A DNA stretch of 46,620 nt from the NCBI GenBank assembly GCA_045542155.1, contig JAZQKM010000091.1, forward strand, positions 1 to 46,620, written 5' to 3'. Below, one piece after another: positions 25,301 to 46,620 of this stretch. Position numbers and translations under genes: made by a program. The first letter of the stretch is position 1; every line of letters begins with the position of its first letter. Below the pieces are notes generated by a model, which saw only the letters and a list, made by a program, of their open reading frames with translations, did no database searches and was not told the origin of the DNA. The stretch comes from Eubacteriales bacterium (GTDB taxonomy: Bacteria; Bacillota; Clostridia; Oscillospirales; CAG-272).

Positions 25301-28000
25301 CAGGCCACGATAGGTTGCGGGAATGGTCAATTCGGTCACAAGAGCGATTCTCGCGCCCTTGGATACGGCATAAACGTCCTTGCCGTTTACTCTGGTAGGA
25401 GTGAAAGAAAGTGTTTCATCAACCCAGAATGCATAGAGCTCCTTGCCCTCGGTGAGGCTCCAGGGAGCAAGGCTGTTACCGCTGCCATCGGTGTACTGAA
25501 CACCCATACCGTAAGGAGCGGAGAACCAACCGCCAAATGCACCTGCAACACTGCTTGCTGTGGGAACAGTAAGGGTGTAGTTGCCGTCGAAGCTTACCCA
25601 ATCGGAGGTAAGGGAGCCGGTTCCGCCAACACCGTAGTTGTAGATGATTTCGTATTTCTTTGCACTATAATAACCGTAAAGCACGATATCGCCGCTTTCG
25701 GCAAAAATAGCATCATTATAAGCCGCACCGTTGCTGGTTGCGCCGCCGGGAACGTTGTACCAAGCTACAAAATTATAACCTGCCTTCTCGGTGGTGGGGA
25801 GAGTGATGGGATCACCTACAGCCTTGAATTGGTTATCAACAGGCTCGCCGCCAAGTGTATCAAAGATAACACGGTGCGCGGTTACGGTGGTGGTAGCCCA
25901 ATCGGAAACGTTCTTGCCATCAACAAAACGAACCTTTACGAGGTTTTCACCCTTCTTATTCAGGGTTACGAGTGCGGAATATGCACCGCCCTCTACTCGA
26001 ACGATCTCGCCGTCGTTTACCTGGATCTCATAGTACTGTGCTCCGATAACGGGAGTCCAGCTGAGCTTGCCGTTGGCATAAGAAACCTTTTCATTCAATT
26101 CATAGTAGCACGCTACGAGCGCATCGGATACCAAAGAATCGGTAGTGCCCTTTGCCTGAACAGTGAGCGTGTATTCCAAGCCTTCGATAACATCTAATAC
26201 AGAGGTAAGATCGAAGGCGGTGGTTGTGCTTTCATATGCGGTACCATTTACGGTTACCTCATACTTCTCTGCTCCGGCAACTGCATCCCAACTAAGGACG
26301 TTACCGTTAAGAAGAAGGTTTGCGGGAGTACCGAGAACAGCCTTGTTGAATACATACTCGGATGCTGCGGGAGAATTATAACCTTCGGATTTAGCATAAA
26401 CCTTAACAACGATGCCACCTTCAAGAGCATCACATTCCTTAAGGCTTACATATGTCTGAGTACCAAAGTTAACAAAGTCATGGTTGTGTGCAGAGTTGCC
26501 GCATTTAACCGAAACCATGTAACTCTCTGCAGAAGCAACCTCGTTCCAAACAAGGGTCTGAGTTGCTTCGTCAAAGCGGAAACCGCTAACGCTATCAAGA
26601 TTCTTGGTAACTGTAAATACGTCAGAAGTAGAGGAAGCGTAGCCATCTGCTACTGCGGTAACGGTAAATTGAATACCGCTTGCAGTCATGGTGCAGTTGG
26701 CAAAGTTGAAGGTTCTGGAAGAACCGTTATCAAATGCAGTGTGGTTATGTTCGGGATTACCGCACACTACAGTAATAAGATACTTCTCTGCATTTTCAAC
26801 AGTGTTGAATACGAGAACAGAGCCGTCTACAAAGAACTCAGAAACTTTAGTGAGAGCCTTGTTTACATAATATCTTGTAGCAACGGAGTCGTTCTGCTCT
26901 CCGGAATTTGCCTTGGCAGTAACAACGATCTCGTATTTGCCTGCACTCCAATCGCCAAAGGAAACATTCATAACGGTTGCGGCAGTGGAAGCATCTACCA
27001 TAACCTCTCCGTCCTCTGCAATGATCTTAACATCGTAAGCTCTTGCGTTTTCAACAGAATTCCAGCTGATGTTGTTTGCCGTAACATTAACGATCGGCAC
27101 TGCAAGCTTGGAATCGGTAGGCTTTGCTGTCCAGAGCGCAAAGAGCGTGATGTTTGCGTTGATGGACATATTGTCCTCATACTTGTAGGAAAGTTTGTTA
27201 CCGTCGGATTCGGTGCTAAACCACCAACCGCCAAAGGTATAGCCTTCTCTATCAAGGACAGGCAGATCAAAGAGCTTGCCGCCTGTAGTGATTTCATCTG
27301 CCAGCACAGCAGCATCTTCGTAGTTTGCATCCAGCTTTACGGTATATTCCTTGCCGGTAACGCTTTCAGCGATCCATCTTGCATAAACGGTCGTGTCAGC
27401 GGTTACGGGAGCAGAGCCAAATGCGTAAGCATTCTTAAACTCAGCGTCTGCATACCAACCGACAAATACAAAGCCGGGACGGGTAGGATCCGCAGGCTTG
27501 GATGCGCCCTTACCGTTGAGAACGGTTTGAGCAGCTACCTCACTACCGCCGTCAACATTGAAGCTAACGGTGTAGTTGAGCTTTTTCAACAAACGCATAC
27601 TTGCGTTGTTGTAGGTAAGGGAAATTACGTCACCCTCGTATGTAGCGGTTACGTCGCTAACACCTTCCGCGTTAAAGTCGAGCACAAGCTGACTGTCGGT
27701 AAGCGTATACTTACCCGCGCTGAGCTCGCCCTTTACATAAAGGGAAAACGTATCGCCAACATTAAGCGTTAACGTATTTTGGAAGTTTACATCATCAAAG
27801 TAGTAAACTCCGGCTTCAGGCCATTCGGTCTTGAATGTCTCGGTGTTGTTTGTACCGGGATCGTCGTCACCGGGACCATCGTCTGGCTTTCCGCCAAGAC
27901 AAATCCAAAGTACCACGCCAACGATAATTGCTACAGCAAGAACAGAAGCAGCAATTATGAGACACAGCTTTCGGTTTTTGAGTAAATTTTTGAATGTCAT
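19391..28000 (-). CDS. Giant (2869 aa) N-terminally anchored surface protein: Listeria-Bacteroides repeats, Fn3-like modules, ~1770-aa BspA-type LRR_5 array, PPC-like C-terminal domain
   Basis: TM LCLIIAASVLAVAIIVGVVLWICLG. Flg_new-type units (GFVFVGWYAD...VYARW; GYTFGGWW...LFALW; GYNFVAWY; NYIFNGWYDN...IYAKW). W..V..A..Y.V Fn3-like modules. LRR consensus IP..V..IG..AF..C..L from about aa 890 to 2658. GGAGAAAAAGCT RBS. Confidence 0.9.
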   Translation of the reverse strand: MTFKNLLKNRKLCLIIAASVLAVAIIVGVVLWICLGGKPDDGPGDDDPGTNNTETFKTEWPEAGVYYFDDVNFQNTLTLNVGDTFSLYVKGELSAGKYTLTDSQLVLDFNAEGVSDVTATYEGDVISLTYNNASMRLLKKLNYTVSFNVDGGSEVAAQTVLNGKGASKPADPTRPGFVFVGWYADAEFKNAYAFGSAPVTADTTVYARWIAESVTGKEYTVKLDANYEDAAVLADEITTGGKLFDLPVLDREGYTFGGWWFSTESDGNKLSYKYEDNMSINANITLFALWTAKPTDSKLAVPIVNVTANNISWNSVENARAYDVKIIAEDGEVMVDASTAATVMNVSFGDWSAGKYEIVVTAKANSGEQNDSVATRYYVNKALTKVSEFFVDGSVLVFNTVENAEKYLITVVCGNPEHNHTAFDNGSSRTFNFANCTMTASGIQFTVTAVADGYASSTSDVFTVTKNLDSVSGFRFDEATQTLVWNEVASAESYMVSVKCGNSAHNHDFVNFGTQTYVSLKECDALEGGIVVKVYAKSEGYNSPAASEYVFNKAVLGTPANLLLNGNVLSWDAVAGAEKYEVTVNGTAYESTTTAFDLTSVLDVIEGLEYTLTVQAKGTTDSLVSDALVACYYELNEKVSYANGKLSWTPVIGAQYYEIQVNDGEIVRVEGGAYSALVTLNKKGENLVKVRFVDGKNVSDWATTTVTAHRVIFDTLGGEPVDNQFKAVGDPITLPTTEKAGYNFVAWYNVPGGATSNGAAYNDAIFAESGDIVLYGYYSAKKYEIIYNYGVGGTGSLTSDWVSFDGNYTLTVPTASSVAGAFGGWFSAPYGMGVQYTDGSGNSLAPWSLTEGKELYAFWVDETLSFTPTRVNGKDVYAVSKGARIALVTELTIPATYRGLPVAFIAGNAFTNCSNLEVINLPETIEQISMISPFEGCSSLVAINVYDVEGVASPAFTSVEGVLLDIGTPSTTKIALVPMAKTGTFRIPEGVTEIPEAAFASSSISKVIITPEVTTIGREAFKDSASLTSVVFEVNSDGTSVPLTIGIRAFMNCTSLEKITLPARLTDIKLQRYSFDKNGINTTEGDSAFTGCTALASIAVASNSQNYMAIDSILYSKNGQNLLFVPASVQGTFVVPEGTKNIGAGAFIGCHFVTEVTLPGSLVLISECAFYGLENLEAITFNGVALNDLEVDKYAFMNCKVLETVTFNEGSRLGKLGESAFQGCESLKEFTFAATMSSVGASAFANCTALQTVNFVASQRTLSFGENAFMNCTGLKTVNLPANVSKIPGVFTGCSSLEAVNVDENSQYLTSVEGVVYDKAMTEIVFFPQGKSGDFELPATITSITNGVFQNVNLGTLTISNTVTFIGDDAFNSAKIDTFTFEGDATGTLTIGANAFRGADIGTLALPAHTVSIGDYAFYETVADSITLNEGIVSLGEYAFWGADLDLTVPASVKTIGAYCFGGYEDWWEGIEAYPNVTLTVENSQLETIGDSAFRENIFVEDLIIPASVKTIGNYAFMDCLSLGKVTFEADSVLETIGAFAFAYGSSWDASYDFTEITIPATVQTIGAYAFAYTKLESVVIEDGTADLVIGTTFADTYYNESMGMYETDIYRGNTFYYCEELKTVELPSRLTVLGNATFKYAGYYADELSITISGDNPRLTTIGEECFYNSNLASFVIPKSVHNLPAYTDPISGETYDRLGIGANAFYGLYDTLTSITFEMGGDLPLTIGANAFYNAALLESVVLPARLATYTSYTGDVITPLANGARVFESCDLLASVTVEDANGAYYTSVDGVLMTADKKELVFYPMARAGEFTVPSTVTKIHSYAFYEASDLTNLVFEGGSDDMYIGEYAFARCTGLTNVVLSNNVVSLGGQAFARCTELESLTLSEKLQSFHATIISNCSKLAAINVGANGQGVYFSSIDGVLYNADKSALIVYPLAKTNEELIVDANVKVIYTTAFANNTYITKVVLPEGLVEIQSNAFEFCYGLKEVNIPSTVQKIDTRAFYYCSALDTVTFTQGSDDLLIIGDNAFANTSSLKSIALPARLYSIGNNTFYLTGLESITFAENSALVEIGDYAFSQTPVIELAIPAGVVKIGNFAFFDCKALLSITFQEGLISIGDYAFAGSDELLSVSFPASLKTLGASVFYYYAYDEYTCSSLESVTFAPNSQLESIPAGTFAYTALKTFTVPASVTVIEGTETNPSYKMPSAFYEVTTLESVYFENGSQCAEIGAYTFESSSLKSIELPTSVSTIGMYAFRYCNSLESIVIPETVTNIGTGAFWQCRALTEVDLRSKTTELNDYLFYGCESLTEITIPASVSVIAVNAFEKAGLAAFNVDPRNTTYKAVDGILYTADGTGIVMIPAQMVITNFVVPNTVTSIGERLFYKLSSLETLVFEGGRTMPLTIGTEAFAECTNLRSIEFTEMITSIGVEAFYGCSALTTVTIPSDMTESVFVTELYYGEQYSGAFYYCSSLIEVCNKSQIELEPGSTKCGYLAAYAIRVYSEGESSVASNNGFTTITLENGDIYLLSYTGSETNVTIPEGITHIYAGAFGEGVEHVTFASTVKVVMSQAFYGSTVKTVTLNEGLEVIDEDAFYYSDLESLTLPTTVKKIGESAFYGSALQGSIALPESLETIGSGAFYYVEGMITFLVPVASAPEGWAADWNEYDYYDNHMVLWGFTGEEITYTFNTMGGSAVESITSAEPITLPAAPTRENYIFNGWYDNEACEGEALTGPYYNGTVTTIYAKWMTQEEFNAQFAGTSFEYAIELQLGETKTYFLAERWEEAYYKITVTESGNYTFSLIGGDTYMCGYDDPEGYYNWYNYSEWNGEDYVDNIKTGVSLEAGVTYYIVFYSYNDNTELTITVTKD

Positions 28001-32977: not shown

Positions 32978-35680
32978 TTAGTTAGTCTCGTTGAGGCTTA
33001 CCTCCCAAATTCTGCTCATAGGGCCGTTATAAGGAGTCAGCTCCGATGCGGGGGTGAGAGAATTTACATCGATGATGTTGGTATTGTAAGCAAAGAGGTC
33101 ACTACGTTGGTAGGTGGGAAGCTCAACCGCGAGCTCCATAACGATGTCGAGTGCAGTCTTATAGAAGCCTGCTCTTTCCTCTTCTACAATGGTCTCTCTT
33201 GCCAAATCAATGATTTCGGAAAGTTGGTTAACAAGTGCAAGCTCTTCGCTGTACTTGTTGCCTGCGTTTGCAAGAATAGCACGGTAACCCCAGTTAGCGG
33301 TGGAGCCTGCAGTGGAATCCTTGTGGTATACCTGATACATATCAGGGTCAACACCTGCACCCCAAGCTGCTGCCCAAACGGTAAGGTCACCGTTGTTCAG
33401 CTTCTTAAGAGCGTTGATATCGGTTCTGACCTCAATATCAAAGCCATGATCATTGAGGATTTCTGCTGCTCTCTTGAGAGATGCGTATGCAGGGTGGTCG
33501 GTAGTGTCACCTGCAATGGTGAAGACATACTTGAGAGTATGACCGTCCTTGGTGTAAATGCCGTCAGCATTCTTGACATAGCCCGCATCGATAACGCGTT
33601 GTTCACTTGTAGCACCGGTTTCATCAAACTTGTAGTACTGTCCTTCTGCGTCAACACCCTCGGGATATGCCCAGGAAGCCTTGGTCATAGGACGGGTGAT
33701 GGGCTTGGAGTAACCAAAGTAATAGTCAACAGCGTATTGGGTGTTGATTGCGTTCATAATAGCGCGGCGTACTTCGATATCCGGAACCTTTTCAGCATTG
33801 ATACCGATATAACCGTAACCGTTGGTCATAACAGGGGTGCTTGCAAAGCCCTTGGAAGCATTTGCAGCGATGGAGTCAATATTCTCTTGGATACAAGAAG
33901 GTTCTACAAAGTGAATTTCATTGTTGTAGAGGGACTCAAGCATAAGATTGGTGGAAACAACCTTGTAGTCAACGTACTTAATCTTTACGTCAAACATGAA
34001 GTGCTCATTGCGCTCAAAATAAACTACGTTGTTTGCATTGAAGGTGCCTGCAGTAACTTTAGAGCTATCACCGTTGGCGGTAGTAGCCTTGTAAGGACCT
34101 GCACCCACGGGAACACCGATCTTTTCGGGAGCCTTGATAACGGTATCTTGGAATTCTACGCTACCAAACTGAACGCCAAAGTTTGCTTCATAGTCAAATG
34201 CAGCGATCTGCTCTGCGTTGGAGTAATAGTACATAGGAGCAACGGTAAAGCCGAAGTTCCAGATAGCCTTGGGGTCAACCTTTTCGATGGTGATGGAAAG
34301 AACCTCGTTACCCTCGATTACAGCACCGTTTTCATCCAAGGTAGGAACACCGTATTCTACACCGTTAACAGTAACAGCCTCGGTTTTGTTAGCATACTTA
34401 ATACCGGAAATATTTTTAATTCTGTCTTCTTCATCAATGCTTTCAAAGTAAGCTTGCTTTTCAAGGAAAGCGAAGTAATCCAAAAGCTTTTGTGCAGTAG
34501 CCCAATAGCTGACAACCGTGATCATGTCGTTGGGAACATAACTGGTATAGATTGCATTGATAGCCTCTTCCTCGGTCATGTTCTTGCTGTTCTCACCAAG
34601 AGAGTATACAAACACCTTTTCCTTCTTGTCCCAGGTGATGAAACCCTCGTTGAAAAGGAATGCCTCGGTATCGGTAGTAAGGGTTACCTTATTGCCGTTC
34701 TTATCGGTATAGGAAATATCCTGAGCAGTACCCTTTGCATTGTTGTAGTCGGTTTTTAATTCCTCTTGGAAGTACTTCACTGCAAGATTGTAATCGGAAA
34801 CAACGGTTTTGTAAGCAGCATCGCCGGAGTTGAGTTCCATTTGCTCGGTAAGAGCCGTGATCATTTCATCCTCGCTCAAGCTGACGTTCTTATGCTCGTC
34901 ATAAACTGCCTCGAGACATTCGATCAAGCGGTAAACTCTATCGGATGCCAGCGCATTAAACTGCTTGTTGAAGTCTTTTTGCTCGTTCTCGTTCTTGGTC
35001 TGCGTTCTGTACTCCTGAAGGCCGATGATCTCGGTGGAGTAGATAGTAGCGCTTCCATAGTAAGCGGGATCAAGGTACACATAAAGGTTGAAAAGTACAT
35101 CCTTCATGGTAAGGGGGGATCCGTTGGAGAACTTAAGATTGTTCTTCAAAACAAAGTAGTAGGTGGTTTCCAAAACGGTTTCGCCATCCATTTTTTGCGT
35201 TGTTGCATAGTCGAGGACTACGCACGCCTCATCTTCTCCGTAAGCAACCTTTCCTTCCTTATCGGAGGAAAGCATGCCGATCTGCGTCATGCCGACAACA
35301 GAGCCGTCAGGGCCGGAGGAAGAGTAGAAGGGATTGAATACGCCGTCAAGTTCTTGGCTTGCAAGAACCAGGTGGTCGATTTCATTGCTAAGACCCTTTT
35401 TGTTATTGTTGTTACCAAGCAATGCGATGAGAGCACCTACAGTTGCTCCCAAAACCAAAACAACGGCAAGAACCAATGCAACAAATTTCTTGGTAGACTT
35501 TTTAGCAAATTTCTTAATTTTGCCAATGAGGGATGTTTTGGATTCGCTATTCTTTACCGGTGTGGAATTCTTCTTTTCTTCCGGTGCAGGAACGTTATTC
35601 TCTTCCGGTGTGGGAATGTTATTCTCTTCCGGTGTGGGAACGTTATTTTCTTCCGGAGTAGGGATGTTTTTTTCTTCCAT
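32978..35680 (-). CDS. Family-5 (Opp/Dpp-type) substrate-binding protein, 900 aa, N-terminal TM anchor preceded by a PTPEENN repeat tail
   Basis: SBP_bac_5-like blocks (YYFVLKNNLKFSNGSPLTMKDVLFNLYVYLDP; GAGPYK; VYFERNEHF). TM FVALVLAVVLVLGATVGALIALL. No lipobox cysteine. Confidence 0.88.
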   Translation of the reverse strand: MEEKNIPTPEENNVPTPEENNIPTPEENNVPAPEEKKNSTPVKNSESKTSLIGKIKKFAKKSTKKFVALVLAVVLVLGATVGALIALLGNNNNKKGLSNEIDHLVLASQELDGVFNPFYSSSGPDGSVVGMTQIGMLSSDKEGKVAYGEDEACVVLDYATTQKMDGETVLETTYYFVLKNNLKFSNGSPLTMKDVLFNLYVYLDPAYYGSATIYSTEIIGLQEYRTQTKNENEQKDFNKQFNALASDRVYRLIECLEAVYDEHKNVSLSEDEMITALTEQMELNSGDAAYKTVVSDYNLAVKYFQEELKTDYNNAKGTAQDISYTDKNGNKVTLTTDTEAFLFNEGFITWDKKEKVFVYSLGENSKNMTEEEAINAIYTSYVPNDMITVVSYWATAQKLLDYFAFLEKQAYFESIDEEDRIKNISGIKYANKTEAVTVNGVEYGVPTLDENGAVIEGNEVLSITIEKVDPKAIWNFGFTVAPMYYYSNAEQIAAFDYEANFGVQFGSVEFQDTVIKAPEKIGVPVGAGPYKATTANGDSSKVTAGTFNANNVVYFERNEHFMFDVKIKYVDYKVVSTNLMLESLYNNEIHFVEPSCIQENIDSIAANASKGFASTPVMTNGYGYIGINAEKVPDIEVRRAIMNAINTQYAVDYYFGYSKPITRPMTKASWAYPEGVDAEGQYYKFDETGATSEQRVIDAGYVKNADGIYTKDGHTLKYVFTIAGDTTDHPAYASLKRAAEILNDHGFDIEVRTDINALKKLNNGDLTVWAAAWGAGVDPDMYQVYHKDSTAGSTANWGYRAILANAGNKYSEELALVNQLSEIIDLARETIVEEERAGFYKTALDIVMELAVELPTYQRSDLFAYNTNIIDVNSLTPASELTPYNGPMSRIWEVSLNETN
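35571..35680 (-). repeat. 24-bp in-frame tandem repeat, about 4.5 units, encoding (I/V)PTPEENN at the start of the SBP gene
   Basis: CTTCCGG recurs at 35578, 35602, 35626 and 35650 (and CTTCCA at 35674), exactly 24 nt apart. Confidence 0.85.
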
Positions 35681-36849: not shown

Positions 36850-39800
36850 TTACTCGACGGTGTTGCCATTATCATCGGATGACTCTTCCTTTTCGCTGAC
36901 AGGCAACTCTTCCTTAACGCTTACGTTCTGCTTCTTCTTTTTCATAAGCACTACAGTAACCGTCGCAGCACCGCCGATAACAAGTACAGAGCCAACTACG
37001 ATCAGCACAATGACCCATACTTGAAGTCCTTGCGGAGGTTCTGCGTTATCGTCTACAATAGGAGTATCTTCTTCTACTCCAACATTTTCGGCGTAGGAAA
37101 GACCGAAATCAACGGTTTTGCCATAAAGTTCATTGAGCGCCGCGATTTTTGCATCCAGTACAGATGCATTGGTAACGAGTTCCTTTTCCTCAGCGGTAAG
37201 AGCATCATAAGCTTTCTTTGCATCTTTAACCTTGTTAAAGCAATATTCAAGCTTATCCATGTCAAACAGATGGGCAATCTTGCCTTCTACTACGTCAGCG
37301 TTGTACGCCTTGCGTACATTTTTAAATGTAGTCAGTACCGATTCGTCAACGAAAGCCATATCCTCGCTATGTCTTTCAAGAGCGTTGTATGCGGTAATAG
37401 CTGCATTTACCAGGAGAGTATCAAATCTGTCTACGTCAGTGGGGAGTTTGTTTACTGCCTCGATGAACGCGTGAGCATACTTTCCTGCGGTTACGCCGGA
37501 CGTTTCCTCAGCAAAGGTGAAGTATGCGTTGTAAATGAGAGTATCATAACCTTCACAGTTATCGGGAAGGATTGCCACAAGATCTGCTGCAGATTTGTGT
37601 CCTACAACACCAATAAAGGTGCTGTAATAATAAGGAGCAGCAACCTCGCTTTGAGTGAGATAGTAGAAGCTGTACTTATACAGAGAGTCAAAGCCGGTAT
37701 AATCAGAAACGTTTTCAAAGTTGATCTTAATTTCTTCACCGGTCATAGTTCCCTCAAGCACGGGAGCATAATAGGACTTAAATACAACAGTATTTAGCTT
37801 TTCGCAACCTTGGAACGCGTAGTTTCCGATGTATTTAAGAGTGGAAGGAAGAATTACCTTTTCAAGGTACTTATTACCGAGGGCTGCACCGAATTCAATT
37901 CTTACAGTGCCTTCGATAACGGCATACTCGGGATCTTCCTTAGCGGCGGGATAGGTGGTAAGGATGTAGCCCTTATCGCTCTTAACATAAAGAACACCCT
38001 TATCAAGAACAACATTTTCCAAAACCACGGTATCGAGGCCCTCACTGTTAACCAAACCCTTGAAGGACTCACTTCCCTCAAAAATGTTAAAGTCTACGTC
38101 CTTGAGAGAATCGCCGATTACGAACTGCTCCATAGCGGTGTAAGCAAATGCACCGTAACCAATGCTTTCAAGAGCGGGAGCCGTTACAGATGTAAGTTTT
38201 TTGCAACCTGCAAACGCTTGATCGCCAACAAAGGTAAGCTTGGGAGCATAAACGCTAACCAAATTGTTCGTTCCAAACTCTACCCCGTTATTGTTAAGCG
38301 TCTCAACAAACGCATAACCGTCTATGTACTCTACGTTGTCGAGAGAGAGAGCTTCAGGCAGAGGAACTGCACAGAATGCACCTTCACCGATCTTAACCAG
38401 ATGAGAAAAGTCAATATCGGTAAGAGATGTGCAGCCATAGAAGGTATATCCGGAAACCTCTTTAAGTGTTTCGGTAAGAGCAACAGACTCAAGTGCCTCG
38501 CAAAGAGCAAATGCACCCTCACCGATAAAGGTTACCTTGGGAAGGTCAATAGACTGGAGACTCAACGAACCGTAGAAAGCGTAGTCGCCTACGTATGTGA
38601 GTGCGGGGAGATTTACGGATACAAGCTTGTTAACATAGGTTGCCTTTTCATCGTTAGGAGCAAAGGCATTATTGTTGATCTTTTCAAGACGCTCTGCGCT
38701 GAATTCACTAAGACTTGCACAATCGCTAAATGCACCTTCGCCAAGTTCGGTAACATAAGGCGCTACAACAGATGCAAGAGAGAGACACTTGTAGAATGCG
38801 AAATTGCCGATCTTGCCCGTTACTTCGCTAAAGTCAAAGGAAGTAAGATATGCACAAGAATAGAATGCGCTATCACCAATGGTAGCATCGCCCAAGAGAT
38901 CAACTGTTTTAACAGCAGACTCTGCAAATGCTAACTTTCCTATGTTTACGTTAGCGGCGAGCTTAACAGTCTCGAGAGACTGATTACCGTAAAATGCACC
39001 GTCGCCAATCGTTTGAACGTTGGAAAGGTCAACATTCTTAAGATACGACATGGCAAATGCATACATACCAATATCGGTAACCATAGAAAGGTCGATCGTT
39101 TTAAGCTCGGAGGTTGCATAGAATGCATATTCCTTAATAGAAATCGCTTTTTCGGGAAGCACAACAGTAGTCAGTGCGCTGCAGCCCGCAAATGCATTCT
39201 CTTCAATGGTAGTAAGTTGTGAACCGGGGGCAAATTCTACCTTTTTGAGTTTGCTCAGAGAGGAGAATGCGCCACTGCCAATTTTTACAACATTTGCAGG
39301 AACAACAAACTCGGTTTTGGTGCTATCGGGAATAACAAGAACGAGTGTGGTCTTATCCTTGTTGTAGATAACACCATTTTCCTCAACATAGAGTGCAGAG
39401 TCGGCAACGTCAATGCTGACGTTTGTTTTGTAAGCCAAGAAGGGAGTTATGCCGATGTAGGCAAGCTCGGTGTTTTGGGAAAGCTTAATGGTAAGCAGCT
39501 TGCAGGAATCGAATGCACTATCCCCAATATTAATCTTTCCATCGGGGAGCTTAACACCGGTAAGCTTTTCACAACCGCTGAATGCGTAATCACCAATCGC
39601 CTCAACAGACTTCTTAAACTCAATGCTCTCAAGTCGCTCACAATCCTTAAAGGCTCTTGCGCCCAAATAGGTAATGTCATTGGCAATCACTACACTCTTG
39701 AGGTTTTTGGAACCTGCAAAAGCATCATCAGCAATGCTATCAGCATAGACAGTGACCGAAGTCAAACCACTGTTCTCGAACATCTTAGAGGAAACTCTGG

Positions 39801-42800
39801 TGCTGGAACCCAACTCAACGGAGGTCAGCTTGCTGCAATTTGCAAATGCACTCTCTCCGATTCTTGCAAGGTGGGTAAGTGTCAAATTGGAGAATCTGGT
39901 GCTTGCAAAGCCAAATTTACCTACCGTGTAGATTTCAGAAGTTTTTGCTCCGCCGATCTCTTCGCAAGAGAGACTCTTGCAATTGTTGAATGCATAGTCG
40001 GAAACGATCTTAACATGATCGAAATTTACGTTTTCAAGAATGATACAATCCTCAAATGCATGCTCGCCAATCTGCTTACATGTGGAAGGAAGCGTTACGT
40101 TTCTAAGTGCAGTACAGTTGTAGAAAGCGTATTGGTTAATGAATTCAACGCCCTCAGGAATGACAACAGAGGTTACGGTATCGTTACCGATAGCCGACTT
40201 CTTTTCGTCCAAATCATAGTAACCGTTTTCGTCCTTCTCTACCTCTTTCTCGTTATCCAGATCATAGTGAGAGAATGCGAAATCGCCGATATAAATAATT
40301 CCTTCATCATCGGGGATCACAACCTCACCACCCTTACCCTTGTAGGCAATAAGTGTTCTGTTTTCAATGATAAATTCACTCTTTACTTCAACAGAAAGTC
40401 TTGCTGCAAGAGTAGAAGTTTTTCCGTCAATGGTGATCTTAAGGGTAATTCTGGAGTTACCTTCAGCCTCCGCAGTTACTACACCGTTTTCATCAACAGT
40501 AGCAACCTTGGGGTTACTCGACGTCCAGGAGAGCGTGTATCTATCCTCGGAGATATTCCAAGGCTTAAGCAGAGGGGTAAGCTGTATCTTTTCGGAGGGG
40601 TAACAAGATACGCTATAGTTGCCATCGAAATAGTGAACCGAATCAGTTCTGCCGATTTCGGAATAATCGATGTCACTGTTAAATGCAAATAGTGTTTTGT
40701 AAGAGACGAACTCTAACGATTCAAGCAATACATTATCGCCTGAATTGGGATTATCGGTTATAACAGTCTCGGAGACATTTACCGTCAAGTACTTAAATGT
40801 AGGAATGTTTACGGTAATTCCGTTCGACGTTGTCTTTGTGATCCAGCTGTCACTGGTGACTCGTACAAGCGCCGTACCGGATTTCAACGCCTCAATTTGG
40901 CCGTTTTCAATAGCTAATACATCGTCAACGGGTTCCCATACGTCGTTTACCCAATGACCAACCTCCCACTTAAGCGTGTGGAGATAATCGCTGTTAACAG
41001 TCTTGGTGGTATCTTCGTATACAAGGAACTTGGTGAGATCGAAGGTCTCGTTAATGTCGAGCTCGATTTCATCTTCCATAAATTCCAGATCCTTGCCGTC
41101 ATCTGCAGTAGAGGGGAAAGGAACGTAGGTGATGGAAGCGTTCATTGCATAGTCGTCAAGATAGAGTGTCACGCCGTTAGGCATGGTGGAATCCGCAATG
41201 ATATCCAGATAGTCGGTAAGCTCGATAGTGACCACGGTATTTTCGCCGCGATTGGTCTGATATACTGGAATAGGATACTCGGTAAGGGAAGCGTAGGTCT
41301 TTTCAATATCTCCCTTTTCGGGATCCCAAATCTCGTACACCGCAATGGGGCGAACCGACATAACATAATGGTTATCGAATACGGTAAGATCAAGATAGTA
41401 TCTGTTCTCTTCTCTTCCCTTATCGTACTCGGTTCTGAAATTGGAACTGATTACAGCAGGAGCTTCGTAGTCGATATAGAACGAGAAGGAGTAGGAGTCG
41501 GAGATGTTTTCGCCGCCCTCCCAGTCGAGCTTGGCGCTCATGGTAACCTCAAGCTTGGTATTGTTGTTACCCAGTACTTTTCCCGTTTCAAAATCTACAG
41601 ACGGAAGATTGAATTTAGCAAGATAGGGGTACGGAGAACCGTTGAAGTGTGCCTTGTAACAGTTGTATTGCGTGTCTTCCCATACAACCTCACCGGTGGA
41701 AGTATCAACAATTTGAATATTGAGCTCTTTAGCGCCTCTGAGAAGTCCGGCAAATACACCGTAAATACCGCTGATACAGTCTGCATAGTAAGAAACAGCT
41801 GCTTTTTCCTGCGTTGCGGGAATTGCGTTATACTTGGTTTCATCCATCTCGTAAACGTAACTGCCCAAAGGAAGGATGTAGTCATAGTAGTAAGTACCCA
41901 GGGGGGTCGTTGCGTAATAATCTGCTTTGATCTTGTCTTCGTCGTCAATAGCATCGTTGTGTGCCTCGGTTTCAACCTCATAGAAGTCAAGGTCAAAGAT
42001 CGGAGCCTCGCTCCAATCGCCATAGAAGGCAAGGAAAGGAGCATTGAGGTCGATGCCGTTCTCTTCGGTGCTGGTGAAGGTCAAATAACCCTCAACGTAC
42101 ATACCGTTTTCAAACGTAGCGTTAAGATAGCTCTTATCCTTAGCCGACAATGTGAGGGTTACGTTTATCTTTGCGGTTTGTCCTGCCGCAACCGAAACCA
42201 CACCGTCTACAAGGGTGCCCCCTTCAACGCTATACTCGGAACTGTTGGAAAGCAGATACGCCATTTCTGCTACGTACTCAGGTTCGGAAGCGGATATGCT
42301 TTCGGTCATGGTAATGTTACCGAGCTTGTAGGAGAGTGTGCGATCGGAAAGGTTGGTCAGATTGATGCTCATCTTGTAGACGCCCGTACGGTTGGGGTCA
42401 TCCTTGAGCTCAAGCTTGGTCTTGTTGATACCGTCAACATGAAGGTATGCGGGAGTCGTGGTGGATTTTGCGATATCGGCAATACCTGCACCCTGTTTTC
42501 TTGGGGAGTAAGGGTTGCCCTTTTGGTCGAGTGCGATGGTCGCAGTCGACATAGTAAGCTGGTTAACGAGGTCTCTTACCTCGGTTGCGGAAAGCTTGGG
42601 GAAGGTTTCCTTTACGTACTGACGGATCAGGACGGTAATACCGCACATATTGGGAGCAGCCATACTCGTGCCGCTCTGCTCGTCGTATTCACCGCCTACA
42701 ACGGCAGAAAGAATATTGCCGCCGTGCGCCGTGATTTCGGGTTTAAGAGTCAGGTCAGGATTAGGACCCCAAGAGGAGAAATCACTCATAAAGGGACCTG

Positions 42801-44571
42801 CTACGTTATCGAGATTGAACTCGAGTGTTCCCGATTCGTGTGCCGCAAGTCTGTCACCTTCGTCTTTACCGATAGAGACTGCAGGAATCCTTGCGTCGTT
42901 ACCAATGGTCATGGTGATGTCACCAAAAACGTTGTTGTAAATGATAACGGCAATCGCACCTGCCTCTGCGGCAAACTGTACTTTTTCTTCAAAGGTGATA
43001 TCGCCTCTCTTAACGAGTGCGATCTTACCGTACATATCAAGGCCGGTATAGTTGACCTTCATACCTACGCCGGGGATGGTAACGTACTCGTATGTTACGT
43101 TATCCCCCTTTGTAATGCCAAGCATTGCAAAGAAGTCGTATTCCTTTCCTGCGGTGTTAACCGAAGGAGTAAAGAAGATTTCATCCTTGCCATTGGCAAA
43201 CATATAATTGTCCTTTTTACCGCTAATGGATGCAACAGACATTGCAGATGTGTAGGTGGAGGGAGAACCTACGGTAGCGGAGTCGGGATTATCGGTCTTG
43301 TTGGTGTTACCTTGCTCAGAACCAAAACCACTGCTGTAATCGTTGGAAGCCGCAACTACCAAAGAAATACCTGCTTGCTCGATTCTGCTGTAAACCTCGT
43401 TCTTATACACCTTATCGGGAGCACTCTCATAAGTGAAGCCGCAGGTGGAACCAAGACTCATATTGATAGCGTCAACGCCAAGAATAACGGAGTCCTCAAG
43501 AGCCGCAATGATATCGCCTTCTTCTGCGCCTTCGTCGTAGTCACTAAAGACCTTCATAATAGCGAGCTGCGCATCGATAGCAACACCGGTGATCTTGTCA
43601 TCCTTACCCGCAATAATGCCGGCTACGTGAGTACCGTGGCTATTTTCGAAAGGCATAATGTCCGGGTCCTTGTCGGCGTAGTCATAGCCAAACGCGATCT
43701 TATTGCCGGTAATGTTACCGTAGTAAACTTCTCTTGCTTCGAGGTCGGGTGTAAACTCCTCCGCCTTGAAATCCTCTTTTTCGAGAAGGTCTGCGATCTT
43801 ATCACGGTTATAATAAGGCTTTTGGACCTCATAACTGTTGAAAGCGGTGTGAGAATAATCACAGCCGGTATCAAGAATGGCAACAATGGTTCCCTTACCG
43901 GTGTAGTCAACACTGCCGCTGTTGAAGATACCGGTTTCGTAAACGTCAACGGGATTTTCAACCGCTGCCGCCGGCAGGTAGGTGTTGGAGATCATAATTC
44001 TCTCAACGCCTTCTACCGCACTGATCTTTTCAATCATGTCGTAGGTGGTCTTAACAAAAGCACCGTCGGCAATATGTACGTAGTTGTAGCTGACGTTGTT
44101 AATCAATCCCTCTGCCATAAGCTGATCGAGCACCTTGTTTTGGTTGGCGGTAAGCTCGTTGGCATAGCTCTTGGCTGCCGCGGTATCCTTAAACTGCTCG
44201 TAAGTCATTTGACTTGCGTATTCCGATCTTGTGTAAGCAGCTACGAGGGAGTCATCGGAAAAGGTAATGATCAAGCCAACAGTACCGCGGAGTTCACTGT
44301 CCGTGATCTTCTTAACCAGATTTTGGTTAAGCGACTTGATAAGATCCTTTTTTAGTTTTGCTGTCACCTCATCTACATCGAACTTAGCGATGCCTGAGGG
44401 AGAAATTGAGGGTGAAGAGCTCTCTTTATCTACGTGTAAAGAGATATTCTCTGCCATAGCACAAATGCCTACAGCCGCTGATTGCAACAGCAAGATGATG
44501 GCAATAAAGGCAGCAAAGCACTTGGACAGCAGTACTCTTCTAGGGGTTTGATGTGTGGATTCTTTACGCAT
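36850..44571 (-). CDS. Cell-envelope S8 (subtilisin-family) serine protease with PA insert, Fn3-like and Big_2 domains, a ~870-aa BspA-type LRR_5 array and a C-terminal TM anchor
   Basis: Catalytic triad motifs VAILDTGCD (D at 43870-43872), HGTHVAG (about 43636) and SGTSMAAP (about 42664). PA domain GKIALVKRGDITFEEKVQFAAEAGAIAVIIYNN. Big_2 WTSSNPKVATVDENGVVTAEAEGNSRITL. LRR units at about 37750-40368. TM VWVIVLIVVGSVLVIGGAATVTVVL. Start set at MRKEST (ATG 44571) behind GAGGAATTCAAA. Confidence 0.9.
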   Translation of the reverse strand: MRKESTHQTPRRVLLSKCFAAFIAIILLLQSAAVGICAMAENISLHVDKESSSPSISPSGIAKFDVDEVTAKLKKDLIKSLNQNLVKKITDSELRGTVGLIITFSDDSLVAAYTRSEYASQMTYEQFKDTAAAKSYANELTANQNKVLDQLMAEGLINNVSYNYVHIADGAFVKTTYDMIEKISAVEGVERIMISNTYLPAAAVENPVDVYETGIFNSGSVDYTGKGTIVAILDTGCDYSHTAFNSYEVQKPYYNRDKIADLLEKEDFKAEEFTPDLEAREVYYGNITGNKIAFGYDYADKDPDIMPFENSHGTHVAGIIAGKDDKITGVAIDAQLAIMKVFSDYDEGAEEGDIIAALEDSVILGVDAINMSLGSTCGFTYESAPDKVYKNEVYSRIEQAGISLVVAASNDYSSGFGSEQGNTNKTDNPDSATVGSPSTYTSAMSVASISGKKDNYMFANGKDEIFFTPSVNTAGKEYDFFAMLGITKGDNVTYEYVTIPGVGMKVNYTGLDMYGKIALVKRGDITFEEKVQFAAEAGAIAVIIYNNVFGDITMTIGNDARIPAVSIGKDEGDRLAAHESGTLEFNLDNVAGPFMSDFSSWGPNPDLTLKPEITAHGGNILSAVVGGEYDEQSGTSMAAPNMCGITVLIRQYVKETFPKLSATEVRDLVNQLTMSTATIALDQKGNPYSPRKQGAGIADIAKSTTTPAYLHVDGINKTKLELKDDPNRTGVYKMSINLTNLSDRTLSYKLGNITMTESISASEPEYVAEMAYLLSNSSEYSVEGGTLVDGVVSVAAGQTAKINVTLTLSAKDKSYLNATFENGMYVEGYLTFTSTEENGIDLNAPFLAFYGDWSEAPIFDLDFYEVETEAHNDAIDDEDKIKADYYATTPLGTYYYDYILPLGSYVYEMDETKYNAIPATQEKAAVSYYADCISGIYGVFAGLLRGAKELNIQIVDTSTGEVVWEDTQYNCYKAHFNGSPYPYLAKFNLPSVDFETGKVLGNNNTKLEVTMSAKLDWEGGENISDSYSFSFYIDYEAPAVISSNFRTEYDKGREENRYYLDLTVFDNHYVMSVRPIAVYEIWDPEKGDIEKTYASLTEYPIPVYQTNRGENTVVTIELTDYLDIIADSTMPNGVTLYLDDYAMNASITYVPFPSTADDGKDLEFMEDEIELDINETFDLTKFLVYEDTTKTVNSDYLHTLKWEVGHWVNDVWEPVDDVLAIENGQIEALKSGTALVRVTSDSWITKTTSNGITVNIPTFKYLTVNVSETVITDNPNSGDNVLLESLEFVSYKTLFAFNSDIDYSEIGRTDSVHYFDGNYSVSCYPSEKIQLTPLLKPWNISEDRYTLSWTSSNPKVATVDENGVVTAEAEGNSRITLKITIDGKTSTLAARLSVEVKSEFIIENRTLIAYKGKGGEVVIPDDEGIIYIGDFAFSHYDLDNEKEVEKDENGYYDLDEKKSAIGNDTVTSVVIPEGVEFINQYAFYNCTALRNVTLPSTCKQIGEHAFEDCIILENVNFDHVKIVSDYAFNNCKSLSCEEIGGAKTSEIYTVGKFGFASTRFSNLTLTHLARIGESAFANCSKLTSVELGSSTRVSSKMFENSGLTSVTVYADSIADDAFAGSKNLKSVVIANDITYLGARAFKDCERLESIEFKKSVEAIGDYAFSGCEKLTGVKLPDGKINIGDSAFDSCKLLTIKLSQNTELAYIGITPFLAYKTNVSIDVADSALYVEENGVIYNKDKTTLVLVIPDSTKTEFVVPANVVKIGSGAFSSLSKLKKVEFAPGSQLTTIEENAFAGCSALTTVVLPEKAISIKEYAFYATSELKTIDLSMVTDIGMYAFAMSYLKNVDLSNVQTIGDGAFYGNQSLETVKLAANVNIGKLAFAESAVKTVDLLGDATIGDSAFYSCAYLTSFDFSEVTGKIGNFAFYKCLSLASVVAPYVTELGEGAFSDCASLSEFSAERLEKINNNAFAPNDEKATYVNKLVSVNLPALTYVGDYAFYGSLSLQSIDLPKVTFIGEGAFALCEALESVALTETLKEVSGYTFYGCTSLTDIDFSHLVKIGEGAFCAVPLPEALSLDNVEYIDGYAFVETLNNNGVEFGTNNLVSVYAPKLTFVGDQAFAGCKKLTSVTAPALESIGYGAFAYTAMEQFVIGDSLKDVDFNIFEGSESFKGLVNSEGLDTVVLENVVLDKGVLYVKSDKGYILTTYPAAKEDPEYAVIEGTVRIEFGAALGNKYLEKVILPSTLKYIGNYAFQGCEKLNTVVFKSYYAPVLEGTMTGEEIKINFENVSDYTGFDSLYKYSFYYLTQSEVAAPYYYSTFIGVVGHKSAADLVAILPDNCEGYDTLIYNAYFTFAEETSGVTAGKYAHAFIEAVNKLPTDVDRFDTLLVNAAITAYNALERHSEDMAFVDESVLTTFKNVRKAYNADVVEGKIAHLFDMDKLEYCFNKVKDAKKAYDALTAEEKELVTNASVLDAKIAALNELYGKTVDFGLSYAENVGVEEDTPIVDDNAEPPQGLQVWVIVLIVVGSVLVIGGAATVTVVLMKKKKQNVSVKEELPVSEKEESSDDNGNTVE

Positions 44572-44666
44572 TTTGAATTCCTCGGTTCTTTGGCTTTTCA
44601 TGCCGTTCAAAAGCTGACCGACATGAGCGAAATTAATAAATGAGTGTTTAGACACTCGTGTCTTTC

Positions 44667-44695
44667 ATTTTACCACAAATTACGCAAAATGTCAA
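44667..44695 (-). promoter_or_regulatory. Strong SigA-type promoter for the S8 protease gene
   Basis: Minus strand reads TTGACA (44695-44690), 17 nt, TGgTAAAAT (extended -10, 44672-44667). The palindrome GACACTCGTGTC (44651-44662) sits at the predicted transcription start. Confidence 0.65.
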
Positions 44696-44797
44696 TGCTA
44701 TATTGTATATATATATACATACTATACATTTCGTCGTTTCGCCAAAAACAGGATGTACTTTAAGTGACATTTTTGTTTAATTTGCGCCCATTTATCC

Positions 44798-44837
44798 GAC
44801 GGCCACCTCAAGCAGCGAGTGGTCGTTTTACTTTTTT
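44798..44837 (+). terminator. Orphan terminator-like hairpin on the plus strand, with no plus-strand ORF upstream
   Basis: GACGGCCAC (44798-44806) / GTGGTCGTT (44819-44827; two G-T positions that would be G-U pairs in RNA), followed by TTACTTTTTT. Confidence 0.3.
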
Positions 44838-45085
44838 AAAAATAAAATTTACGCTTTTTTAACATTTAGAAATACGCTTTAATTCAAATTTGCAATTTTT
44901 CAGTTGAAACTTTCAAAAACCCCTGCCCTTGTACCAAATCAGAGATTCTTATTCTTTGTATTTTAACAAGCAAAAAGGGGGGGCTGAGTCTTCAGATGCA
45001 GAAGGCGTGGTTTGGAGTATCGTAGGCGTACAAAGGTACAGCTAAGAGACAAAACGCGACTAAAAAGCCACATAAAACGAGGAAA

Positions 45086-45108
45086 CCCGCCGAAAAAAAT
45101 TCGGCGGA
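45086..45108 (-). terminator. Intrinsic terminator-like hairpin downstream of repeat module 1
   Basis: CCGCCGAA / TTCGGCGG stem. The minus-strand tail is GTTTCCTCGTTTT. Confidence 0.5.
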
Positions 45109-45188
45109 TTTCGGCATAAAACTATATTTTTAGTTGATCTTTATCTTTGTTTATAGGGGTGGCTTTTGTGCTGTACTAAATGAATCAG

Positions 45189-45415
45189 CCTCTTTTGTAA
45201 GTTTCGACCAAAGGTCGAAATTATCTCTTGGAGTTTTAAGAACGCCGTTTGATATCGTGAATATCGTAAAATATCGTGCGATAGCGTGTATTTATCGTGT
45301 GTTTTCGTGCGATATCGTGAACATCGTGAGTATCGTCGCATAAAGTGTTGCACCAAATTTGCACCAAAATCACACCAACATTCAATGCTGTTCTGCTCGA
45401 CAAATTGGAATTTGT
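45189..45415. repeat. Non-coding repeat module, copy 1 (227 bp): hairpin, nine 10-bp ATCGTG iterons, three TTGCACCAA-type repeats
   Basis: Aligns end to end with 46319-46556 (about 24 mismatches plus one 11-nt indel by hand alignment). ORFs predicted inside the two copies are in different frames. Confidence 0.85.
45251..45340. repeat. Iteron array, copy 1: nine contiguous 10-bp units of consensus (A/G)ATATCGTG(A/N)
   Basis: gatatcgtga atatcgtaaa atatcgtgcg atagcgtgta tttatcgtgt gttttcgtgc gatatcgtga acatcgtgag tatcgtcgca, with exact 10-bp phasing. Confidence 0.8.
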
Positions 45416-45424
45416 GTAATAGAT

Positions 45425-45997
45425 TTATCTAAGCATTTCAGCTTTCTCCCATGATTTCGGAAAACGTTTTTTCATAAATTCTTTTTTAGACTCGTTATCC
45501 ACATAAAACTTTTCACGGATAATTCCCTTAGCGATAAAGTCCACTAATTCATTTTGTCTTTCTGCTGATTGCTCGTTATACCGAAGGACTACCAATTTCC
45601 CGTCTGCTTCATATTTCAATAGTTCCTCATACACATCGGGAATGTATATCACTTCTGTCACTTTAGCATTCATTGAACAGTAAAACATATTTGTTCTATT
45701 CTCTACAACTTTAATATCCGTACTATCGGGAATGCAATACAAATACCCCGAAACTCCGTGATAAAAGGTTTTTAGCTGGTCTGGAAACTGCTCTTCATAA
45801 TATGCAGTATCATTTTTAGCCCATCCTGTCACATGCTTAGCACTGCAGCCATTATGTTCTGCATCCCACAGATAAAAGAGTGCATAAGGAATATTGTCAG
45901 TTAAGTAGACGACCTTCTCTGCTGTATTATGGAGCTTGGAACGTGCTTCCAGCTCCATAATGCCAGGGGTACAGGAACCATGATAATAACACTTCAA
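45425..45997 (-). CDS. Hypothetical protein (190 aa) with possible H-Y-E ADP-ribosyltransferase-fold motifs; AT-rich cargo gene between the repeat modules
   Basis: There is no ATG at the ORF start. TTG at 45997 follows GGGGGGTGAG by 6 nt and gives MKCYYHGS.... Promoter P3 lies about 35 nt upstream. Motifs: YYHGS, VVYLTDNIPYALFY, VTEVIYIPD. Confidence 0.65.
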   Translation of the reverse strand: MKCYYHGSCTPGIMELEARSKLHNTAEKVVYLTDNIPYALFYLWDAEHNGCSAKHVTGWAKNDTAYYEEQFPDQLKTFYHGVSGYLYCIPDSTDIKVVENRTNMFYCSMNAKVTEVIYIPDVYEELLKYEADGKLVVLRYNEQSAERQNELVDFIAKGIIREKFYVDNESKKEFMKKRFPKSWEKAEMLR

Positions 45998-46038
45998 AAT
46001 ATACTCACCCCCCAAATTCAAGTTTATCGATTAGTTAG

Positions 46039-46067
46039 ATTATACCATAAAAACGGTGAAAAGTAAA
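46039..46067 (-). promoter_or_regulatory. SigA-type promoter (P3) with the shared CCTATTTACTTTT -35 block
   Basis: Minus strand reads GTCCTATTTACTTTTCACCGTTTTTATGGTATAAT: TTTACT (46067-46062), 17 nt, TGgTATAAT (46044-46039). Confidence 0.6.
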
Positions 46068-46084
46068 TAGGACGGCCAAAGAAA

Positions 46085-46267
46085 ATGAAATCACCTACGG
46101 TGATGAAATCCGCTTTAGCGGATGAAATCTTCACTACGTTCAGATGAAATCCGAGGCAAGCCTCGGGTGATATGAAATCTGCCACCATAACCCGACGAAG
46201 TCGGATTTCATCGCGATAGCGATTTCATCCACGTAAGCGGATTTATTCTGCCACAGGCAGATTTCAT
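46085..46267. repeat. Inverted array of octamers: five ATGAAATC followed by four GATTTCAT/GATTTAT, interleaved with short hairpins
   Basis: ATGAAATC at 46085, 46103, 46122, 46144 and 46172. GATTTCAT at 46204, 46221 and 46260, and GATTTAT at 46240. ATGAAATCTGCC (46172) is the exact complement of GGCAGATTTCAT (46256-46267). Confidence 0.75.
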
Positions 46268-46294
46268 TGCACCTCAGTTCATCCAAGAGATAAC

Positions 46295-46326
46295 AAAAAA
46301 GGCTCTGCATATGCAGAACCTTTTTT
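46295..46326. terminator. Bidirectional intrinsic terminator at the edge of repeat module 2
   Basis: A6, GGCTCTGCAT/ATGCAGAACC (one mismatch), T6. Confidence 0.65.
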
Positions 46327-46556
46327 GCAAGTTTCGACCTTTGGTCGAAATTATCTCTTCGAGTTTTAAGAACTCCGTTTAATATCGTGAATAACGTGAA
46401 ATATCGTGTAATATCGTGCATTTATCGTGTGTTTTCGTCGCGTTTACGCAGGATATCGTGAATATCGTGAGTATCGTTTGATAAAGTGTTGCACCAAATT
46501 TGCACCAAGATCACACCAACATTTAACGCTGTTCTGCTCGACAAATTGGAATTTGT
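46319..46556. repeat. Non-coding repeat module, copy 2 (238 bp)
   Basis: Direct repeat of 45189-45415. Same order of hairpin (46332-46350), iterons (46381-46480) and TTGCACCAA repeats. Confidence 0.85.
46381..46480. repeat. Iteron array, copy 2: about ten 10-bp ATCGTG-type units
   Basis: aatatcgtga ataacgtgaa atatcgtgta atatcgtgca tttatcgtgt gttttcgtcg cgtttacgca ggatatcgtg aatatcgtga gtatcgtttg. Confidence 0.8.
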
Positions 46557-46620
46557 CACCCTGTATAGTTTTTGTGGAAATGGCATTTTTCCTGTCTGCA
46601 TTGATTGTTCAAGTGTGAAC

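Follow-up and report, generated by a model that had tools for sequence, protein, structure and literature searches.

The 46,620-nucleotide stretch of DNA analysed here (the window; contig JAZQKM010000091.1 of a Eubacteriales bacterium, assembly GCA_045542155.1) carries near its right end two copies of a repeat-rich module. These modules are most probably the integrase-proximal arms of attachment sites, joined to their cores, of integrative elements which target the 3' end of the rpsI gene and which have been stacked by tandem accretion. Each module is about 195 base pairs (bp) long and reads, on the plus strand of the window, from a core of 13 nucleotides (nt) through a spacer of 50–140 bp with 3–10 phased ATCGTG units to three 11-bp arm-type sites. 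The presence of two modules is ascribed to two neighbouring single-gene units, both lacking an integrase, which occupy the distal end of an accretion array in tandem, and the cognate integrase is encoded elsewhere in such arrays, outside the window. Complex attachment sites of tyrosine integrases are known as a kind of feature. The form seen here, with up to ten one-per-turn units in the arm, with the arm repeated along a gene array at rpsI, and with the module conserved over many gut species, is unusual and apparently undescribed. An earlier note on this DNA had offered recombinase arm sites, ParR- or TubR-type centromeres, and Rep iterons as readings of the repeats. The first of these is supported for the 11-bp TTGCACCAAAT units and for the whole module, the other two are not.

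The two modules in the window

The modules lie as direct repeats at approximately 45187–45415 and 46315–46556 and are 86–88% identical, with a single 11-bp insertion or deletion between them. In the first, the phased array (45251–45340, plus strand), which forms the spacer between core and arm sites, contains nine ATCGTG-type unit cores at 45254–45337 when up to one mismatch is accepted, spaced 9, 10, 10, 11, 10, 10, 9, and 9 bp apart. The earlier note had described nine or ten units at 10-bp spacing. The arrays are located as claimed, but the spacing is not strictly 10 bp: it ranges from 9 to 11 bp and its mean in module 1, 9.75 bp, is near one helical turn. The second array (46381–46480, plus strand) has eight good unit cores, and a 31-bp gap is filled by two degenerate units, TTCGTC and TTACGC. 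Tandem Repeats Finder detected a period-10 array with 8.8 copies at 45251–45336, arrays of period 9–10 at 46381–46477, and period-11 repeats at 45348–45378. The full 8-mer ATATCGTG is exact in just three units of module 1 and five of module 2. It occurs nine times in the window against 1.13 occurrences expected, eight of the nine fall within the two arrays, and none of 100 shuffled sequences reached nine. The repeats are confirmed to be genuine and far above chance. Across integrase loci the unit core takes the forms ATCGTG, ATCGTT/ATTGTG, or GCCCTCCTGT.

The arm-type sites follow at 45348–45380 in module 1 (TTGCACCAAAT, TTGCACCAAAA, and TCACACCAACA) and at 46489–46521 in module 2 (TTGCACCAAAT, TTGCACCAAGA, and TCACACCAACA), all on the plus strand. 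As the earlier note had said, these GCACCAA/ACACCAA units number three per module, and their spacing is exactly 11 bp in both.

The module core and the end of rpsI

Read as its reverse complement, the 13-nt core TTATCTCTTSGAG gives CTCSAAGAGATAA, with which rpsI terminates (PQFSKR and the stop codon). The first attachment-site core copy (45221–45243, minus strand) consists of TTATCTCTTGGAG at 45221–45233, which matches the final 13 nt of rpsI (CTCCAAGAGATAA) as their reverse complement, with the conserved arm start GTTTTAAGAAC next to it; the second (46351–46373, minus strand) consists of TTATCTCTTCGAG and the conserved arm start. Three copies of the core are present in the window where 0.13 would be expected, those at 45221 and 46351 as direct copies. 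Among the 39 listed rpsI relatives, 35 have CTCSAAGAGATAA at their end, and the remaining four deviate from it at one or two positions. Where modules can be aligned to a true rpsI junction, in the related loci L037, L048, L053, L110, and L128, the identity stops exactly at the 13-nt core. Because it equals the end of rpsI and because the identity stops at the rpsI junction, the left boundary of the module is taken as the attachment-site core. A short core is thereby common to the target gene and the element boundaries and present as direct repeats, as in an attachment site which contains arms. The core and the arm start together (the equivalent of 45221–45243) are 97–100% conserved in 50 modules. 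An earlier candidate, a crossover in the rpsI terminator (GGCAAAAAG and a hairpin), was dropped after the 13-nt identity with the rpsI end had been recognised.

The relatives of the module were found with a 20-nt probe from the 11-bp arm units, which returned at least 119 genome loci. Most of these are from metagenome-assembled genomes of gut Oscillospiraceae, Eubacteriales, Clostridia, Acutalibacteraceae, and Faecousia, each a different species, and counts of neighbours below refer to the 119 loci listed. In more than 80 loci of different gut Oscillospiraceae and Eubacteriales species the module is kept at the nucleotide level, in a long form with about nine units, a short form with three units, or as a second family with diverged unit cores. 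A unique expansion without conservation elsewhere, which the earlier note had named as the outcome that would speak against its interpretation, is thus not what was found, as the array is conserved in dozens of species. The commonest neighbours are rpsI (39 loci) and rplM (37 loci). In the loci with rpsI the array lies downstream of it and co-oriented, and the junction sequences agree with an insertion at the rpsI 3' end that restores the end of the gene. A tyrosine integrase family stands lower among the recurrent neighbours, in 14 loci by clustering and in 15 by profile search. A scan of metagenomes with an integrase alignment returned 80 loci, in many of which an integrase relative sits directly on the rpsI end, reading ...CAGTTCTCSAAGAGATAA. 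Across loci the same order of features recurs: core or left boundary, phased units, arm units, near-palindromic boundary site, a gene on the opposite strand, partner site, promoter, and the next left boundary. The backbone between genes, about 550 bp at 46004–46555 in the window, is kept as a block in L073 and L116.

The 11-bp sites and the integrase

In three related loci (L031, L068, and L183) the module lies 76–81 bp past the stop codon of the cognate tyrosine integrase. At the far end of the element in L027 four to five arm units are followed by a terminator and then by the core, which is contiguous with rpsI there. Of 50 related integrase loci, 39 have as their best tandem repeat one with an 11-bp period and two to three copies, 3–97 bp past the integrase stop. 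Its sequence varies by integrase clade (TTGCACCAA, GGACATCAA, TTTGGTCAA, TGGTCTTTA, TGGACAAC, AAACACCAA, CTCACGACAAA, and others), and TTGTTCAAC is a repeat of 12-bp period among these loci. TTGCACCAA goes with the integrase clade of L031 and L183. The 43%-identical integrase of L024, located at the same rpsI core, has its own triplet of GGACATCAA by its stop. Since the repeat sequence changes with the integrase clade and adjoins the integrase stop, the 11-bp units are marked as predicted integrase arm-type sites. Repeats of this type, away from the core, adjacent to the integrase, and clade-specific, are found in the related loci; the window has no integrase.

The integrase family among the neighbours of the module matches the Pfam families Phage_integrase, Phage_int_SAM_3, and Phage_int_M. 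Proteins of known structure that come closest to it in sequence include the integrases of Tn1549 and lambda, and about 70 residues precede the SAM-like domain. Arm sites are known to bind the N-terminal domain of the integrase, and winged-helix directionality factors oligomerise head-to-tail on DNA (PMC11963761). The arrangement of the 11-bp units is the one that such binding of the integrase would lead one to expect. In the literature searched no description of the arm motif in this sense was found.

Pairs of TTGCACCAAAT occur within 130 bp of a transfer RNA (tRNA) gene in nine of 14 genome loci from outside the Clostridia, and 12–70 bp from integrase starts in L004, L049, L081, L094, and L111. 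Members of the Bacteroidota and Proteobacteria, one Terriglobia genome, and one Olsenella genome likewise have exact TTGCACCAAATTTGCACCAA next to tRNA genes and integrase starts (the loci behind this observation are L004/L007, L034, L049, L057, L060, L076, L077, L081, L088, L094, L111, and L127), and the viral contig of L004/L007 has three TTGCACCAAATTTGCACCAA units on either side of a tRNA-like segment. One arm motif appears to be common to several phyla. Viral sequences were scanned with GATATCGTGAATATCGTG as well, yielding the phage contigs L130–L134 in an apparently unrelated context. In these five contigs the motif stands at the apparent end of a coding region, and in L133 a tyrosine recombinase gene has its 3' end about 110 bp away from the motif. 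A viral scan with the core pattern gave 48 matches, judged to be mostly chance from the length of the probe, and the module in L157 only.

The 10-bp units between core and arm sites

The 10-bp units fill the stretch between core and arm sites, which in well-studied systems is the place where accessory and directionality proteins act. A small open reading frame for 64–66 amino acids lies directly upstream of the integrase in L031, L027, and L183 and its product matches weakly the excisionase DNA-binding family TIGR01764, with expectation values (E) of 0.003–0.004. As a best guess, we infer as binder of the 10-bp units an excisionase-type or architectural protein which forms a filament and bends the arm.

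The units might instead have no partner of their own. The spacer would then simply be prone to expand by slippage, which would be tolerated while the arm can still loop, and only the core and the 11-bp sites would be functional. This is regarded as unlikely. In 37 distinct long-form copies from other genomes, which belong to different species, the order of the unit variants is constant, unlike what ongoing slippage would leave, although the unit cores in the same copies are only slightly more conserved than the positions between them (95% versus 90.5%), which is in line with such an expansion. Related integrase clades at rpsI manage with a spacer of about 50 bp without phased units, which also fits an expansion, but a distant clade with AAACACCAA arms has TCGT-phased spacers too, and the second module family keeps a strict 10-bp register with diverged cores (TnGT). 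The length distribution fits expansion as well: short and long forms coexist, the core-to-arm distance peaking at 127 bp (50 copies; nine units) and 67 bp (12 copies; three units), and the other values are offset by roughly 10-bp multiples, such intermediates differing by whole units. On the other hand the 160-bp module is more conserved than rpsI, with a median pairwise identity of 87% as compared to 77.6% for rpsI in the same 14 genomes.

A resemblance of the reversed units (CACGATAT) to the arm sites (CACCAAAT) was considered and rejected, the match of six in eight positions being not beyond chance. Two viral contigs, L006 (9200–9310) and L008 (1590–1680), have a LexA-box-like CTGT-N8-ACAG followed by ATGATC units about 10 bp apart and then by two to three copies of TTGCACCAAAT, which is the architecture of the window except that the 10-bp core is another one. 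Terminase and portal genes are present in L006, and L008 holds a Mu-like prophage with a Cas1-like and HigB-like neighbourhood.

Replication origins and centromeres

Readings of the modules as replication origins or centromeres are at odds with their setting. They are located on the chromosome, with the rpsI 3' end as their anchor, and recur between cargo genes that are unrelated to each other. Their recurrent neighbours in the 119 loci are rpsI, rplM, and the tyrosine integrase, and among the recurrent clusters and the proteins scanned no partition genes were seen and Rep in one locus only. The window itself is chromosomal in look, with genes for an oligopeptide ABC transporter, MoxR, and DUF58 proteins and for two giant surface proteins.

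It is very improbable that the repeats are origin iterons or a double-strand-origin binding locus for the Rep protein of the small integrative elements. Rep proteins of the pMV158 type bind tandem 11-bp repeats in this manner, three of them in the case of pMV158 RepB, and the element in L027 encodes a protein with Rep origin-binding and helicase domains; its rep gene, however, is 2–3 kb away from either array. Instead of being linked to a rep gene and confined to a replicon, most modules flank single small cargo genes and recur in units without Rep. Moreover, the core is flanked by arm units on both element ends, the 11-bp repeats follow the integrase clade and are located at the integrase stop, and in other phyla this motif is found alongside integrases linked to tRNA genes, a 37.7-kb viral contig being among the cases.

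Partition centromeres like parC or tubC, to which an episome's small adaptor protein with a ribbon-helix-helix or helix-turn-helix fold would bind, have only the geometry in common with the arrays (roughly one unit for each helical turn, with many units in two blocks). This reading is already contradicted by the chromosomal context beside rplM-rpsI, by the lack of a ParM-, ParA-, or TubZ-type gene in the 25 most recurrent clusters of open reading frames of the 119 loci and in the proteins scanned against family libraries, by a blastn search of 44660–46620 which gave no match to phage or plasmid records, and by the repetition between unrelated cargo genes of modules which each start with a copy of the rpsI end.

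Proposed mechanism and points against it

If the modules are attachment-site arms at rpsI, strand exchange would take place at the 13-nt core identical to the rpsI end. The three 11-bp sites would be bound by the N-terminal domain of a lambda- or Tn916-style tyrosine integrase, whose monomers would bridge from there to the core, for which the spacer would have to be bent or wrapped. A small excisionase-type or host architectural protein may polymerise head-to-tail on the ATCGTG units with one unit per turn, and this filament may set the geometry of the arm and hence the direction of recombination.

Several points weigh against this interpretation. Neither an integrase nor an excisionase nor rpsI is encoded within the window; that the binding partner is not encoded there had been stated correctly in the earlier note. 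The placement of this array at rpsI rests on analogy with the related loci, by which the rplM-rpsI anchor should follow to the right of the window's end. Only one arm belongs to each of the units seen here, and since no arm sites were found on the rpsI-proximal side they may be immobile relics. No Pfam arm-binding family was matched in the N-terminus of the integrase at E ≤ 0.01, and the similarity of the N-termini across integrase clades is weak. The excisionase-like reading frame scores 17.4–17.7 bits against TIGR01764, under the cut-off of 28.8, and has no Pfam match and no relative in PDB by sequence. Such reading frames are also present in integrase clades whose arms have no phased units, and therefore no co-variation ties this protein to ATCGTG; the attempt to link the two by co-occurrence failed for this reason. 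Length steps of about 10 bp are also expected from slippage of a 10-bp repeat without selection, and the high nucleotide conservation could reflect recent horizontal spread instead of constraint.

Should the interpretation as rpsI-targeted attachment-site arms be true, many uncultured gut Firmicutes would share one chromosomal hotspot, the end of rpsI, where small cargo genes pile up behind a highly conserved arm. The module, with its core and two to three copies of TTGCACCAAAT, would then be a sequence tag for finding the arrays and their cargo in metagenomes. It would also explain why assemblies break at the arrays, many of the matches being at contig ends. With its 3 to 10 one-per-turn units separating the core from the arm sites, the module would offer a clean substrate for studying how arm length and phasing control the directionality of an integrase.

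Comparison with known systems

Judged by sequence alone, the modules resemble the complex attachment sites of the lambda type and the attP of ICEMlSymR7A, which has five arm motifs and an oligomeric RdfS (PMC11963761). They have likewise a short core common with the target, tandem arm repeats of about 10–11 bp far from the core and beside the integrase gene, an intervening stretch at the place where, in known systems, accessory proteins of the Xis or IHF type bind and bend DNA, and a small excisionase-like reading frame upstream of the integrase. In contrast to ICEMlSymR7A, where the RdfS sites have no consensus motif, an overt array of up to ten one-per-turn units is present here. Lambda has three Xis sites. 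A further difference from both systems is that the arm occurs many times per locus and detached from the integrase gene.

A second relative is IMESag-rpsI, whose tyrosine integrase acts at the 3' end of rpsI; for streptococcal elements, accretion in tandem together with decayed cis-mobilizable elements has been described (PMC5704250). By description, the elements discussed here share with IMESag-rpsI and the streptococcal integrative mobilizable elements the tyrosine recombinase and the rpsI 3' end as a target. Like the streptococcal elements they are small and occur as tandem integrase-less units bounded by repeated core copies. The element in L027 is about 6 kb long and encodes a recombinase-like protein, Rep, ArdA, the excisionase-like reading frame, and the integrase. 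Its Rep protein combines an origin-binding with a helicase domain, the recombinase-like protein of 315 amino acids has an N-terminal SAM-like match only, and no canonical relaxase was identified among the proteins of this element. The elements discussed here are unlike the streptococcal ones in their hosts, which are gut Oscillospiraceae and Eubacteriales, in their units, which often are a single promoter-driven gene, and in having a backbone that is conserved between units and species, measures about 550 bp, and comprises promoter, hairpin repeats, terminator, core, and arm. In L027 (887–1834) and L031 (765–1763) a protein of 315–332 amino acids was noted which matches the integrase SAM-like domain at its N-terminus only and, weakly, the topoisomerase-I catalytic core. 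An unusual type of relaxase is one possible identity for it, another recombinase is a second.

Boundary sites, cargo genes, and a possible capture platform

The cargo gene between the two modules (45425–45997, minus strand) encodes 190 amino acids, belongs to no Pfam family, and has as its likely start a TTG at 45997 after the ribosome-binding site GGGGGGTGAG. For the protein 341 homologues were found at E ≤ 0.001, and the 120 listed are mostly about 190 amino acids long. In four of the loci with homologues (L001–L003 and L009) the module is absent, and L010, with a 94%-identical homologue, shares only 45395–46032 with the window and has different 10-bp repeats preceding this region. Cargo gene and arm are therefore separable.

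At its 3' side the cargo gene is bordered by a near-palindromic boundary site, CTCGACAAATTGGAATTTG at 45396–45414, which is shared with L010, where the arm is different, and at its 5' side by a partner site, AAATTCAAGTTTATCGATTA at 46014–46033. A second copy of the near-palindromic site at 46537–46555 precedes the next cargo gene, which seemingly ends at about 46558 (minus strand) and runs off the window. The CTCGACAAATTGGAATTTG palindrome had been considered as the core of the attachment site and was downgraded to a secondary boundary site of the cargo gene. Cargo genes are bracketed by inverted pairs of half-sites (TCGAYAAAT ... ATTTRTCGA), and the promoter is outside the bracket. In L018 (at about 760) and L115 (at about 505, arm orientation) a hybrid empty site, GCTCGACAAATTCTTATTTATC, is joined directly to the promoter with no gene in between, which suggests a second, cassette-level exchange.

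A speculative extension, considered possible though rather doubtful, would make the rpsI-linked arrays an integron-like platform for gene capture in gut Clostridia which relies on an arm-dependent integrase. A docking backbone of about 550 bp, with promoter, Gut-1-type hairpins, terminator, core, phased units, and arm sites, would receive promoterless genes swapped at TCGAYAAAT-N4-ATTTRTCGA sites, and a filament protein on the 10-bp units would set directionality. As in integrons (IntI, attI, and attC), small unrelated co-oriented genes are collected at a single place in the chromosome, a site of the recombination type comes after each gene, and empty sites exist (L018 and L115). Unlike integrons, the integrase is not IntI but of the arm-type kind known from phages and integrative and conjugative elements. 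The NCBIfam integron-integrase models gave scores of only 55.7 against a cut-off of 265 and 31.4 against 435. The recombination sites differ too, being direct-repeat arms of about 195 bp with an rpsI core instead of attC hairpins, and each gene has its own promoter.

Other features of the window

The promoter-like site of the cargo gene (46039–46067, minus strand) consists of TTTACT, 17 nt, and TATAAT with a TG extension, lies outside the boundary sites, and is near-identical in L027 and L109. A bidirectional terminator hairpin at 46293–46328 separates two inverted core copies. To its left is an inverted pseudo-copy of the last approximately 24 nt of rpsI (46268–46293, plus strand; GCACCTCAGTTCaTCCAAGAGATAA, 24 of 25 nt), which is likewise arranged in L031. 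This pseudo-end of rpsI faces the core copy of the module across the bidirectional terminator and a palindrome (46268–46363). Another palindrome, TTTCGACC-AAA-GGTCGAAA at 45202–45220, is found just outside module 1, and the equivalent palindrome at module 2 is inverted in its centre, which reads TTT. Conservation of the palindrome does not extend to other loci, and it is probably a flank or terminator and not a component of the site.

No tRNA and no Rfam family at its gathering score was found in the window. The hairpin-rich GATGAAATC region between the modules corresponds to two inverted sub-threshold copies of the orphan Gut-1 RNA motif (RF01706), visible as two inverted, UGAAAU-spaced hairpin arrays at 46083–46155 (plus strand) and 46182–46249 (minus strand) within 46083–46249. 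These copies score 35.3 and 32.7 bits, under the gathering score of 50, and full-score matches with 51–64 bits are present in the related loci L073 (267–339), L124 (1425–1497), L082 (5197–5266), and L086 (3611–3680). In L082 and L086 Gut-1 follows the rpsI stop on the same strand at a distance of about 80 bp. The motif, which would gain a concrete genetic context if the attachment-site reading is true, may be part of the region downstream of rpsI or of the attachment region and not a free-standing small RNA.

Further away from the modules, a 24/48-bp tandem repeat at 35548–35678 (5.1 or 2.7 copies, 81% matches) coincides with the 5' end of a gene for a solute-binding protein of 900 amino acids (32978–35680, minus strand). 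Two giant open reading frames, both on the minus strand, are found at 19391–28000 (about 2869 amino acids) and at 36850–44571 (about 2573 amino acids). The latter, by its translation, has the look of a subtilisin-type protease with leucine-rich repeats, is preceded by a strong promoter-like site at 44695–44667, and directly adjoins the array at its distal end on the chromosome.

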